Shown here one piece after another: positions 28,910 to 32,219 of a stretch of 32,219 nucleotides of DNA; positions within the stretch are counted from its first letter, which is position 1, and the number at the start of each line of letters is the position of its first letter. The translations under genes and the position numbers were made by a program. The DNA is from an uncultured Pseudomonadota bacterium. GTDB taxonomy: Bacteria > UBA10199 > JACPAL01 > GCA-016699445. The stretch spans positions 1 to 32,219 of the forward strand of contig CAZWYB010000004.1 in NCBI GenBank assembly GCA_964637745.1, written 5' to 3'. Under the pieces are notes generated by a model. The model was not told where the DNA came from. It saw only the letters and a list, made by a program, of their open reading frames with translations, and made no database searches.

Positions 28910-31900
28910 TTATTGCTTGGGACAATCCGCCGGGATGCTGGAGGCAGGTCCGCAATATTCTTTGAGGGCGCAGACGCCGTCGGCGTGGCCGTCGTCGATC
29001 AACTCCGCTCCGAAGGGATTGCAGGTCGTGGTCGTGTTGCTCGTCTGGTCGTTGACGGTGATTGTACCCGTGAAGGTGAAATTATTCTGATTGCAGAGGC
29101 GGTAACCGCCCGTCGTGAAATCCATCGAAAAAAGCCCGTGATCGCTTCCCGCCGCAAAAGCGAGCGCGGCGCCGTCGCTCACGCCGGTCACGTCATTGGA
29201 CTCCGCATGTTCCTGAACGGGAATGAACCGGCAACAACTCCCGTTCCCTCCGCCGCAACCGGATGCATCATCTTGGAACCTCGTCACCTTTCCGTCGGAC
29301 CCCTTGCAAACGCACTGGGCCTCCTGAAAGGGATCGTTTCCGACGCAGGCGTCATCGTCACGGCAACCTCCCGAGGCTTGGACCTGCGCGAACCGTTGTT
29401 CCAAGACCGTTGGGTCGGTGCACGTCTGGCCGATCACCAAGGCGGAACGGAAGATGCCGTTGAAGAGGACGGCGTTCTGGGTGTTGTTGGGGTCGCGTTT
29501 CTGGCAATTGATGAACCTCACCAAGACCGTCGTTTCGTTCAACGTACAGACGCCGTTCGGGTCGTCCTGACCTGACGGATCGGTCTTGCGGGCCTCGGAC
29601 CAACAGCTTAAGAGCTCGTGTTTCCCTCCCGCATTGTCGCACTCGACGAATTCCGTCTCCGGTGGAACCGAATTGCAGAGCGAGCCGGGTCCGAGGCAGA
29701 CGCCGTCGGCGTTGCAGGTGGCGTTGTTGCCCAAGGCGTTGCAATTGCTGTCGCGCTCGGCCTGCGTCGACCCGCTGTCGCAACGGTAACTGCAATAATT
29801 GCGGCCACTGGCCGGATCTTTCGCGCAGACGGGACCGTTGGGAAAGAGCACCGCGCAATCCGCATCCTGAACACATTGCAAATTATCCACTTCCGCCCAT
29901 TTGAGGGTCAGGGCCACGACCGGATCCTCGAGACCCAAGGCGTTCACGGCGAGGGTCGCCGAAGAACTGCTGGTCACGCTGGCGCCGGGGGTCGCCACAT
30001 CGAACGTAGAAGGGATCTCGAGCGGGGCCGACGGCGTCGCCGGCGACGGGCAGCCGGGACCGAAAAGCGCGATGACGGCGATCGCCGCCCCCATGACCTT
30101 CGTCCCGAGATGCAAATAGCGTTTTATCAAACCGCGGAAACGATGTTTTCCTTCCGGCTGATTTTTCTGATCTTGGCGATCTTTGTGGGGCGATAAGAGG
30201 GGGTTCGAGTCATCCTTCAAATGACCAGGCCTGACCTTTTCCCAATCCTCGTACATTTGGAGTCTTTCCCGGGAGCGACGGTAACGATCCCGAAACTCCT
30301 CGGGAAGGGCTTCCGCCAAGGATTCGATGATCTGAATCCCTTTTTCCAGCTGACGTTCCGCCTCGTCCATGCGCCCCATCGCCGACTCCGCCTTGAACCT
30401 TGTGTGATAAACAGAAGAGAGTGTCTCATGAAACCGCTGCTCGAGACAACGATTCTCCAATTGCGTTAATATCTCCAAGGCCGGAACCCTCTCCCCTTTG
30501 CGGATCATCATCCGGACGCGCAAGAGGTCCGTCCGGATCACGAGCTCCTCGTCCCGGTGATCGGTTCGGTCCCCCTCGATAAAACGCAGGCAGGAGGCGT
30601 CGTCGTTCCGATCCAGGCTCATTTCGGCCAACAAATAGCGGCTCCAGCCGTCGATTCCCGCGTCCTGAAGCTCCTCTCCCATCCGAAAAGAGGCCTCCAA
30701 AAGCTTGTGGGCCCTTTCGGTATCTCCGGTCTCCCGAAGCCGGCATCCCTCCATGAGAACGAACCAGGCCGTCAACGCTTCATCGGACGTGCTCTCCGCC
30801 AGGCGGCGGCCCTTTTCAAAACATTCGGCCGCGGCCTCCTCCATATTCAGCCTGAGGTAGGCGCCCCCGAGGCGGAGAAAGTTGAACGCGACGTCGCGAG
30901 GGGACCCGAAACGTTCCTGATAGGAAATCGTCTTGCGGAGGAGGGGTAGACAATCCGCGTAACGCGCCTCCTTCATCAAACCGTACGTCAGATTGCCGAG
31001 GATGGAAAAAACGGCCGCCAACGCGCCGGACGATTCCGCCAAGGCCAAAGCCTCCCGCAGATGACGGATCCCCTCCTCCCATCGCGCGCCCTGAAGGAGG
31101 GCGAATCCGAGGCCGTTCAGGAGCGTGATCCTCTCGGCCACGCGAGCCGTTCCGATCCTCTCCAAACGTTCCCGGTAGAGCCGAACGGCCCCGTCGCGGT
31201 CGCCCTTTAAAGACAGAAGAAGCCCGAGGCCGTTGTTCGTGACCTTAACGCGATTCTCCGGCTCCAACGCCTCTTCCTGAACGAGCGTCTCGCGAAAAAT
31301 CCTTTCCGCCTCGGTCCGATTCCCGGCCTGGAGCTCGACGTTGCCGACGGCGTTTCGCAGCAGAATTCTACGCAGGCTTCCCTCATGCGGAATCAATGCG
31401 ATCGCCTTTTCGAAATTTTCTCGAGCCGAAGGGAAATCGCGTTCTTTGTAGGCGATCGTGCCTTTCATTTCCCAAAAAGCGGAGGACGGAAACGAGCCCA
31501 ATCTTTGAAGGTTCTCGCGCGCCTGCTGATACGCGCCGGTCAGAATGAGGAGCCGTGCCGACTTGAGAGTTAATTCCTGCCACTCCTCGGAACCCTCCTC
31601 TTCGAGTTCGCGGGCCTTCACCAGACACCGGCAGGCGGCGGCCGTCCGGCCTTCCGCGGCGAACCGATCGGCCTCCTCTTTGTATAAACGCAAAGCCTCG
31701 TCCTCCTTCCCGCCCCGGGCCATATGAAACGCGACTTCCTCCGACGGGGCCGTTTGCAAACGGTCGAGACCGTCCGCAATGCGACGATGAAGGAGCGCCT
31801 TCTCTTCCGGCGCGAGAAGTCGAATCAGGTCGAGAGCGAGGGCTTGGCTGGAGAGTTGGTAGGTTCCCGTGAGCTCCCCTTCGACCAGCCCCTCCCGGAT

Positions 31901-32219
31901 CAGGAGTTGAAGCCGGTCCCGAAAAACCCCGGGATCCGCGCCAAGGGTTTTTGCCAATTCGGATTCTTGGACGGGCCGAAAAAAAACCGCCATGAGATTC
32001 AGCAAATCCTTTGTTTCCCGGGGAAGAGGCTCGATCCGTTTTTCATAGAGGAGGCCCACATCCGCCTTGGGAAGAAGGTCTTCGATTGATTCTCCCCGGT
32101 AGAGATGCGGCGCCAGGAATCTCACGCTTTCCGCCATCAGCAAGGGGAGCCCTCCCGAATACCGATGGATCGCCTCCGCCGCCGGGATCACCGGGCTGGG
32201 CGGACTCCCCGATATGGCC
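28910..32219 (-). CDS. Large TPR-repeat signalling protein (5' end outside window) with one TM helix and a C-terminal Cys-rich extracytoplasmic domain
   Basis: The frame is open to the window edge, and the track M at 32191 is an internal GTG. The first ~140 aa resemble the helical/winged-helix segment that follows STAND/AAA NTPase domains. About 500 aa of TPR-like repeats follow. TM segment VMGAAIAVIALFGPG. The last ~330 aa contain about 40 Cys (DADCAVLFPNGPVCAKDPASGRNYCSYRCD...). Confidence 0.8.
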   Translation of the reverse strand, partial: AISGSPPSPVIPAAEAIHRYSGGLPLLMAESVRFLAPHLYRGESIEDLLPKADVGLLYEKRIEPLPRETKDLLNLMAVFFRPVQESELAKTLGADPGVFRDRLQLLIREGLVEGELTGTYQLSSQALALDLIRLLAPEEKALLHRRIADGLDRLQTAPSEEVAFHMARGGKEDEALRLYKEEADRFAAEGRTAAACRCLVKARELEEEGSEEWQELTLKSARLLILTGAYQQARENLQRLGSFPSSAFWEMKGTIAYKERDFPSARENFEKAIALIPHEGSLRRILLRNAVGNVELQAGNRTEAERIFRETLVQEEALEPENRVKVTNNGLGLLLSLKGDRDGAVRLYRERLERIGTARVAERITLLNGLGFALLQGARWEEGIRHLREALALAESSGALAAVFSILGNLTYGLMKEARYADCLPLLRKTISYQERFGSPRDVAFNFLRLGGAYLRLNMEEAAAECFEKGRRLAESTSDEALTAWFVLMEGCRLRETGDTERAHKLLEASFRMGEELQDAGIDGWSRYLLAEMSLDRNDDASCLRFIEGDRTDHRDEELVIRTDLLRVRMMIRKGERVPALEILTQLENRCLEQRFHETLSSVYHTRFKAESAMGRMDEAERQLEKGIQIIESLAEALPEEFRDRYRRSRERLQMYEDWEKVRPGHLKDDSNPLLSPHKDRQDQKNQPEGKHRFRGLIKRYLHLGTKVMGAAIAVIALFGPGCPSPATPSAPLEIPSTFDVATPGASVTSSSSATLAVNALGLEDPVVALTLKWAEVDNLQCVQDADCAVLFPNGPVCAKDPASGRNYCSYRCDSGSTQAERDSNCNALGNNATCNADGVCLGPGSLCNSVPPETEFVECDNAGGKHELLSCWSEARKTDPSGQDDPNGVCTLNETTVLVRFINCQKRDPNNTQNAVLFNGIFRSALVIGQTCTDPTVLEQRFAQVQASGGCRDDDACVGNDPFQEAQCVCKGSDGKVTRFQDDASGCGGGNGSCCRFIPVQEHAESNDVTGVSDGAALAFAAGSDHGLFSMDFTTGGYRLCNQNNFTFTGTITVNDQTSNTTTTCNPFGAELIDDGHADGVCALKEYCGPASSIPADCPKQ

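Follow-up and report, generated by a model that had tools for sequence, protein, structure and literature searches.

The window analysed here is the whole stretch of 32,219 nucleotides (nt), positions 1-32219 of contig CAZWYB010000004.1 (C4) of an uncultured Pseudomonadota bacterium, whose genome is 83% complete and lies in 299 contigs. At its far end, an open reading frame (ORF) on the minus strand runs from position 32218 to a stop codon at 28910-28912, with 1102 amino acids (aa) visible and the 5′ end open. This is a real ORF. It encodes a known kind of signalling protein, in which a serine/threonine (Ser/Thr) kinase is joined to a STAND NTPase and a tetratricopeptide repeat (TPR) sensor, and it carries an unusual and unique C-terminal extension made of a hydrophobic segment and a cysteine-rich region. 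The parts of the ORF, from its N-terminal side, are as follows.

28910..32218, minus strand: the kinase-STAND-TPR-hydrophobic segment-Cys-rich ORF, 1102 visible aa and the stop codon, continuing past the window end beyond a gap of 10 Ns.
31610..32218, minus strand: residues 1-203, helical/winged-helix arm after the NTPase, beginning at the invariant YSGGLPLL and aligning to the paralogue on contig C96 from its residue 492.
30347..31609, minus strand: residues about 204-624, TPR/MalT-like repeat sensor (Pfam TPR_12, TPR_2, TPR_1 and TPR_MalT).
30242..30305, minus strand: residues about 638-659, LPEE[YF]RxRY...EDW motif, the last block common to all relatives.
30098..30148, minus strand: residues 691-707, basic segment KHRFRGLIKRYLHLGTK, resembling the C-terminal tail of short-form relatives, with in-frame TTG codons at L697 and L702.
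30062..30097, minus strand: residues 708-719, hydrophobic core VMGAAIAVIALF of 12 residues with an ATG at M709, a putative membrane anchor or internal signal-peptide h-region.
30050..30061, minus strand: residues 720-723, GPGC, a non-canonical lipobox-like turn and Cys.
29876..30049, minus strand: residues 724-781, Pro/Ser/Thr-rich linker, the first 34 residues of which contain no Lys or Arg.
28913..29875, minus strand: residues 782-1102, orphan Cys-rich domain of 321 aa with 26 Cys (an even number).

The extension is coding sequence of the same kind as the rest of the ORF. Codon log-odds against the genome's long ORFs were 0.31 for the cytoplasmic part and 0.25 for the C-terminal part in the ORF frame, and they ranged from -0.27 to -0.63 in all other frames of both halves. 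The GC content of third codon positions was also alike in the two halves (0.70 and 0.76). Since the log-odds are positive only in the ORF frame and the third-position GC content is similar, the C-terminal region is native coding sequence and in frame. An earlier note on this DNA, made from the letters alone, had quoted four peptides of the protein, and all four were found in the ORF.

The contig runs 874 bases past the window, behind a scaffold gap of 10 Ns at contig positions 32220-32229. This upstream piece encodes 287 aa, comprising the last 75 or so aa of a kinase domain followed by an AAA_16 NTPase (E = 9.6e-15; 55.9 bits with a cut-off of 32.6), which lies across the gap and outside the window. 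The NTPase motifs can be read directly as Walker A (GEEGIGKS) and Walker B (LLLDDF). An NTPase beyond the window had been predicted in the earlier note, and the contig extension bears this out and places the tail of a kinase domain before it. The upstream piece aligns to residues 221-504 of the complete paralogue C96 and the visible part to residues 492-1145; because the two cover C96 continuously, the gap hides nothing. The identity of the piece is 37% to C96 and 30% to the overlapping part of a second paralogue, C176, and it thus belongs to neither. Most simply, the upstream piece would be the N-terminal part of the present gene. About 220 N-terminal kinase residues are off the contig, and the whole protein would have about 1,590 aa. 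The eight relatives aligned with it carry the kinase motifs VA[VL]K, HFDIK or HSDIK, DFG and APE. Elsewhere in the window, 18 kb from the kinase gene, positions 10151-11158 (plus strand) encode a protein of 335 aa that has an FHA domain at its C-terminus (E = 1.4e-21). FHA domains are readers of phospho-threonine, so this protein is a conceivable partner of the kinase.

In the visible part, TPR families matched residues about 204-624, in agreement with the array of TPR-like repeats described earlier. TPR_12 (E = 3.5e-14), TPR_2 (E = 1.4e-12) and TPR_1 were above their cut-offs, and TPR_MalT (E = 1.4e-9) reached 38.1 bits, below its cut-off of 45. The protein thus has a P-loop NTPase with Walker A and Walker B motifs and, after a helical arm, a C-terminal TPR sensor, as STAND proteins do. 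According to passages of PMC4381067, STAND proteins are ADP-bound monomers at rest, and an inducer on the repeat sensor leads to opening, ATP binding and multimerisation, by which effectors are brought together; PknK is named there as a STAND Ser/Thr kinase. By architecture (AAA_16 and TPR_MalT matches), the present protein is like PknK of Mycobacterium tuberculosis and MalT of E. coli, in which an effector is followed by a P-loop nucleotide-binding oligomerisation domain, a helical arm and a TPR-like sensor, as far as these are described in those passages. PknK and MalT are soluble proteins whose last domain is the sensor or a DNA-binding one; the present protein adds a hydrophobic segment and a putatively exported Cys-rich region.

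A search with residues 1-700 returned ten proteins at E ≤ 1e-3, the protein itself included. Six relatives are short forms of 1,110-1,159 aa with Pkinase, AAA_16 and TPR matches. Three are long forms of 1,654-1,710 aa, which add GAF, Sigma54_activat and HTH_8; one of them is named "sigma 54-interacting transcriptional regulator" by its source. The protein was aligned with eight relatives at 31-40% identity, P0012 (23% identity) being left out. The motifs YSGGLPLL and LPEE[YF]RxRY are common to all aligned sequences. Six of the eight relatives have a basic tail such as GLFSRVKKIFG or GLLLRIRDALKRG and stop about 25-40 residues past LPEEYRxRY, and two run into GAF-Sigma54_activat-HTH_8, so that among the aligned proteins only the present one runs into a hydrophobic segment and Cys-rich sequence. 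The paralogues C96 and C176 likewise stop in a short basic tail, and two homologues from other genomes, G002 (ending ...KRHLHLH) and G005 (ending ...KHFFHLH), are short forms. Eleven loci were fetched from other genomes, with the C-terminus visible in nine (L021 runs off its contig, and no ORF was found in L025). None of these nine had such an extension, nor did C96, C176 or G002. Of the genome's 25 kinase matches, none but the present one has a hydrophobic segment and a Cys-rich tail behind an NTPase/TPR module. The short-form group (P0005-P0008, P0010, P0011; C96, C176; G002, G005), which consists of proteins from metagenome-assembled genomes of uncultured "Deltaproteobacteria" and the genome's own paralogues, shows 38-42% identity to the protein over about 650 residues, with YSGGLPLL and LPEEYRxRY in common. 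Its members, however, stop at 1,110-1,181 aa, and the present protein is about 395 residues longer. Since the natural C-terminus of the family lies exactly at the junction with the hydrophobic segment, the extension points to a lineage-specific fusion and not to a family trait. Judged from the alignment, the family C-terminus is a site for attaching output modules, as the long-form relatives show.

Between the cytoplasmic repeats and an outer domain, the earlier note had placed a single transmembrane (TM) helix. The segment is indeed the most hydrophobic Kyte-Doolittle 19-mer of the protein (residues 702-720), but its 12-residue core and what follows look like an internal signal peptide with a lipobox-like Cys more than a TM helix of about 20 residues. 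The layout resembles the N-termini of the genome's lipoproteins (...FFPTLGC, ...FLNAGC, ...GGGMGC, ...GIFGC and also IAGC), in none of which Pro is found at position -2. The canonical lipobox, L-[AS]-[GA]-C, is N-terminal with its Cys at +1. The present segment is internal (near residue 1,190 of about 1,590) and reads F-G-P-G-C, and is therefore similar to lipoprotein signals in kind only. There are six Lys/Arg in the 17 residues before the core and none in the 34 after it. Under the positive-inside rule, the positively charged flank stays on the cytoplasmic side, and this charge bias therefore predicts an N-in/C-out topology, in line with the cytoplasmic array and outer domain of the earlier note. 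The mean hydropathy of the 19-mer is 1.67, just above the usual threshold of 1.6. The hydrophobic moment of the basic segment 691-707 is moderate (79th percentile). A MinD-like membrane-targeting helix in the tail was also considered and is weakly supported, since the moments of the family tails lie at the 45th-94th percentile of 11-mers from the protein's own cytoplasmic part.

Past the segment, residues 722-1102 (381 aa) contain 27 Cys (7.1%), in comparison with seven (1.0%) in the 698 residues before it. The region is acidic and rich in N, S, T and G, with 12% D+E and 5.5% K+R past the core. A Cys-rich C-terminal domain of about 330 aa had been described, and one is present, running over 321 aa from Cys782 to the end. 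Its Cys content had been overstated, as about 40 Cys were claimed and the whole visible ORF has only 34. After Cys723, 26 Cys remain, an even number, and we infer that the region is stabilised by disulfides. Machinery for envelope disulfides is encoded in the genome: besides two DsbA-like proteins there is a VKOR-DsbA-like fusion, a single 386-aa ORF (G000:C123:6190-7305) that combines VKOR with a DsbA-like thioredoxin domain and is a likely oxidative-folding system for the genome's many Cys-rich exported proteins. No DsbB was detected, the genome being 83% complete.

The sequence of the domain is an orphan. A word-indexed protein search with residues 722-1102 returned only the protein itself. 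No family matched in Pfam at E ≤ 10 or in NCBIfam at E ≤ 1, and the best E-value against PDB sequences was 1.4, so that no known extracellular Cys-rich family was found there by profile or sequence. Apart from the protein itself, an exhaustive phmmer search of 1.84 billion representative proteins returned only two proteins with RCC1 repeats (E = 7e-4 and 1e-3); each of these matches a single repeat-like stretch, and both were judged compositional and rejected as relatives. A search of the ESM Atlas yielded no usable match. The domain has no paralogue in its own genome and no match in the genomes of 40 relatives, and a scan of metagenome contigs gave 68 pattern matches, none of which was confirmed.

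Cys-rich ORFs are rare in the genome (58 among the 5,072 stop-to-stop ORFs that reach 150 aa, with some spurious frames in the count of 58), and genes for exported proteins of this kind lie beside several relatives of the kinase. On the same strand, 70 nt beyond the paralogue C176, there is a gene for a lipoprotein of at least 933 aa that contains 112 Cys. In G002, which belongs to the same family but another genus, a lipoprotein of at least 592 aa that contains 64 Cys is encoded on the same strand 134 nt beyond the kinase homologue, and a further Cys-rich ORF lies upstream. The two neighbouring lipoproteins share 35% identity over 575 aa (E = 7e-65), and both have TSP_3 (thrombospondin type-3) repeats. 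The two-gene module thus occurs in two genera (L035, G000:C176, 1-5330; L033, G002:C21, 2338-7660). Beside the paralogue C96, a convergent gene encodes a 470-aa lipoprotein with 27 Cys. Besides the present gene there are 12 homologue loci with a visible C-terminus (the nine fetched ones together with G002, C96 and C176; G005 is on the same contig as L019). An adjacent gene for a Cys-rich exported protein was found at three of these 12 loci, which are kin, so that their counts carry no statistic; one more, L023, has two such genes 3-4 kb away. The pairs are suggestive of the present gene being the fused version of a kinase/exported Cys-rich protein pair, in the manner of a "Rosetta stone". The likeness of the present domain to the TSP3-repeat lipoproteins downstream of the C176 and G002 kinases lies in its very high Cys content and similar composition. 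Those lipoproteins are exported and bear a lipobox, and unlike them the present domain has no TSP_3 repeats and no detectable sequence or profile similarity to them.

At C176 and G002, the spacers that separate the kinase gene from the lipoprotein gene are AT-rich, and no sigma-54 site was found in them. A perfect palindrome, TTATCA-N3-TGATAA, was observed at 17 sites in the 2.5-Mb genome (contigs C3, C13, C14, C19, C27, C29, C41, C46, C53, C62, C77, C90, C114, C176 and C231), far above chance for a 12-base pattern. At seven of the 17 sites (C13, C19, C46, C53, C62, C77 and C176), a gene for an exported protein with 3-12% Cys follows within 100 nt. The palindrome also occurs between the kinase and lipoprotein genes in G002 (L033:5752-5884), and there is none in the window. 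It looks like a putative operator of a regulon of Cys-rich surface lipoproteins.

Our preferred reading, held with a little better than even confidence, is that the gene encodes a cytoplasmic kinase-STAND-TPR protein of about 1,590 aa that was fused in frame, and in this lineage specifically, to an exported disulfide-rich region. On the cytoplasmic side there would be an N-terminal Hanks-type Ser/Thr kinase, the AAA_16 STAND NTPase, the helical arm, a TPR sensor of about 420 aa and the basic tail of the family. The signal-peptide-like segment would place the 381-aa disulfide-rich region (26+1 Cys) beyond the cytoplasmic membrane. Such a gene may have arisen from a short-form kinase-STAND-TPR gene that was fused to a gene for an exported, lipoprotein-like Cys-rich protein of the kind found beside the paralogues. 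As to mechanism, we infer that the TPR array would remain the cytoplasmic sensor of the inducer, and that the outer domain would serve as a membrane tether for the kinase and would bind a ligand of the envelope or the outside, or cluster on it. Clustering by the ligand would favour ATP-dependent oligomerisation and hence trans-activation of the kinase. Alternatively, a cut at Cys723 might yield a tethered kinase and a free lipoprotein in equal amounts. A bolder version of this reading is that the protein is a genuine transmembrane STAND receptor kinase, with an NLR-like, ATP-driven oligomerisation switch and a Ser/Thr kinase wired to a disulfide-rich ectodomain, and that the short-form STAND kinases partner the adjacent Cys-rich surface lipoproteins of the putative TTATCA-N3-TGATAA regulon. 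We regard that version as doubtful.

Kinases that cross the membrane once are widespread in bacteria, among them the receptor-type Ser/Thr kinases of the PknB/PknH type. With these the present protein would share a cytoplasmic kinase, one membrane segment and an extracytoplasmic domain, if its predicted topology is right. It differs from them in having about 900 aa of NTPase, arm and TPR sequence on the cytoplasmic side between the kinase and the membrane segment. According to parts of PMC11032199, 70-80% of Planctomycetota kinases are membrane proteins, mostly single-pass ones; in these the TM segment closely follows the kinase and TPR or WD40 repeats are mostly periplasmic. In the classical single-pass kinases of the present genome (C1, C5 and C72), the TM segment lies about 370-410 aa from the start. 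A protein with the order kinase-STAND-TPR-TM-ectodomain was found neither in the open-access literature searched nor among the relatives retrieved.

Several observations weigh against the fusion reading. The uninterrupted core has only 12 residues (V708-F719), set between K707 and G-P-G-C723, and its hydropathy is marginal. The Kyte-Doolittle threshold also flags soluble GAF strands in the genome's other kinases, so that hydropathy alone is weak evidence for a membrane segment. A single-sequence AlphaFold2 model of the Cys-rich domain was uninformative (predicted local distance difference test score 35.4, predicted template modelling score 0.22). When the domain was compared with the lipoproteins neighbouring the paralogues, BLAST gave E > 1 and hhalign against the pair of TSP3-lipoproteins gave a probability of 0.2%. 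The single hhalign match covers 24 residues before the first Cys of the domain (residues about 759-782, window 29900-29970; NALGLEDPVVALTLKW... against AGLHLNGPNVSALVLK...) and is not significant (E = 0.25). At eight of the 12 other homologue loci, no gene for a Cys-rich protein lies within 4.5 kb. The N-lobe of the kinase is off the contig, and its catalytic motifs are seen only in the relatives. The two sides of the N-gap agree over just 46 nt, at 87%, before they diverge, indicating a contig of modest quality nearby, and the 10-15 codons at the joint are therefore unreliable. The divergence, which lies inside the gene, reflects a contig-end error or a strain mixture. The gene is also a singleton, its protein cluster having one member on one contig. 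Its DNA was found in one public run only, X1, at a depth of about 3-5x; this run is probably the source sample of the assembly, and its contigs are not independent of it. On the side of the fusion, the separately assembled contigs of the run repeat the sequence, and one of them, of 443 nt, covers positions 29969-30411 with no difference and no gap and spans the junction of tail, core and Cys723. It is the product of a second assembler that probably used the same reads, and is thus not independent evidence. Two further runs of the same study, X2 and X3, have next to no cover of the stretch and give no evidence either way. A second contig of run X1 differs from the window at eight positions within 63 nt (31526-31588), as a strain variant or a paralogue fragment would. 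Given the low coverage, the singleton status, the missing N-terminus and the lack of a fold or topology prediction, confidence in the fusion reading is limited.

Two rivals concern the junction itself. One ORF may give rise to two proteins, a membrane-tethered kinase-STAND-TPR protein and a free Cys-rich (lipo)protein, through an internal (lipo)protein signal peptide cut near Cys723 or an internal start at TTG-697, TTG-702 or ATG-709; functionally this would equal the two-gene arrangement of C176 and G002. We think this fairly unlikely. The basic stretch, the 12-residue core and G-P-G-C resemble the lipoprotein signal peptides of the genome, which encodes Lgt and LspA, the three in-frame start codons lie just upstream, and the number of Cys left past Cys723 is even. 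On the other hand, GPGC departs from the canonical lipobox, its Pro at -2 is absent from the local examples, no convincing ribosome-binding site is well spaced from any of the three starts, and signal-peptide processing about 1,190 residues into a protein would be unusual. It is unlikely that the fusion is an artefact or a very recent lesion, that is, that the living population has two genes, a short-form kinase gene ending near residue 706 and a gene for an exported Cys-rich protein starting at ATG-709, with the stop codon between them lost by a consensus error or a rare variant. The relatives do end within a few residues of the junction (...KRHLHLH*, ...KHFFHLH* and ...KKFLHPH*, where the present protein reads ...KRYLHLGTKVM), and low depth in one sample, singleton status and contig-end errors 2 kb away also speak for this explanation. 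However, the second assembler yields the identical junction with no indel, and the error would need to strike one particular codon. In addition, the interval between tail and core could not hold a stop codon together with a ribosome-binding site and a charged n-region, translation from M709 would give a protein that has no basic n-region, and at the paralogous loci the two genes do not abut but are 70-134 nt apart with AT-rich spacers.

The other two rivals concern what the protein does. It is very unlikely that the segment does not span the membrane and that the Cys-rich region stays in the cytoplasm as a domain added to the TPR sensor, binding metal (Zn or Fe-S) or sensing redox state. Cys-rich cytoplasmic domains exist, and the short core, its marginal hydropathy and a threshold that flags soluble strands too would suit one. 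Against it stand the strong charge asymmetry, the P/S/T-rich linker and an acidic, K/R-poor composition typical of exported proteins; no CxxC-type metal motif matched a Pfam or NCBIfam model, and the other Cys-rich proteins of the genome carry lipoprotein signals. An antiphage STAND sensor of the Avs/NLR-like kind, with a kinase effector and a membrane-acting C-terminal part, is the most improbable of the explanations considered. Part of PMC13581612 describes STAND NTPases of defence that have TPR sensors and TM effectors, and the kinase domain of C96 matches the PD-T4-6 and mad6 kinase models. However, the C96 matches cover only the generic kinase domain (residues about 10-280), and PADLOC found no family in the 1102-aa visible part; the upstream piece gave one marginal match, to PD-T4-6 (E = 0.0084). 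The neighbours are housekeeping genes and genes of unassigned function rather than a defence island, and relatives in the family are fused to sigma-54 activators, that is, to transcriptional signalling. A role in defence is therefore unsupported.

Downstream of the kinase-STAND ORF lies what the earlier note called a sigma-54 island, for which it had proposed the protein as a candidate input device. The features downstream of the ORF are as follows.

28795..28809, minus strand: P3, a sigma-54-type -24/-12 site (TGGCCCTCCCTTTGC) with one mismatch to TGGCAC-N5-TTGC, about 30 nt upstream of the ATG of the next gene.
28285..28764, minus strand: gene for a 159-aa acidic, low-complexity putative lipoprotein (MKTSLGFGALLAAMVLCSAC...), directly downstream of the stop codon of the kinase-STAND ORF and matching no Pfam family.

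The position of the gene immediately upstream of P3 was given correctly, but support for a functional link is positional only. Exact TGGCAC-N5-TTGC sites stand back to back at 23366-23380 (minus strand) and 23587-23601 (plus strand). At two mismatches, 16 sites were found in the window against 20 expected, no more than chance, and P3 therefore rests on its position. Scans for terminators and inverted repeats between the stop codon of the kinase-STAND ORF and P3 gave nothing decisive and no terminator-like site. Against a link, the kinase-STAND gene is convergent with the plus-strand operon of the island (23630-28248), and there is no sigma-54 activator gene on the contig. Pfam likewise found no GAF, Sigma54_activat or HTH_8 in the 1102 visible residues; the upstream piece gave a sub-threshold Sigma54_activat hit (E = 0.053) on the AAA_16 P-loop. 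With no GAF, sigma-54 AAA+ or HTH module, the protein cannot itself activate a sigma-54 promoter. A linkage of homologues to the island was not borne out, as neither the island proteins nor the C-terminal domain were present at any of the 15 homologue loci tested. The island gene at 26791-28248 was not found in the 20 nearest genomes with the query used.

The long-form relatives (P0004, P0009 and P0012; Pkinase-AAA_16-TPR-GAF-Sigma54_activat-HTH_8) have the same kinase-STAND-TPR core fused to an activator module, which the present protein does not have. The genome itself has 26 sigma-54 activator matches and 31 exact TGGCAC-N5-TTGC sites. At least seven of the 26 activator matches share an ORF of 1,179-1,670 aa with a kinase match (contigs C24, C42, C44, C49, C65, C81 and C115). 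No description of Pkinase/AAA_16/Sigma54_activat fusions was found in the open-access literature searched. Because kinases are often coupled to sigma-54 activators in this lineage, an indirect link of the present protein to the sigma-54 island is plausible.

PknK-like STAND kinases are seen as sensors that are soluble in the cytoplasm. A real fusion would offer a concrete, testable hypothesis for what both orphan partners do, and even if the fusion is an artefact, the conserved pair of kinase and TSP3 lipoprotein genes remains a useful lead. Should the bolder version of the reading hold, the protein would be a bacterial counterpart, on a STAND scaffold, of the eukaryotic receptor kinases with Cys-rich ectodomains. 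A protein with an NTPase switch and a TPR sensor standing between the kinase and an exported domain would integrate signals from inside and outside the cell in one chain. It would also point to a partnership of this kinase family with Cys-rich surface lipoproteins, which are abundant and evolve fast in this uncultured lineage.

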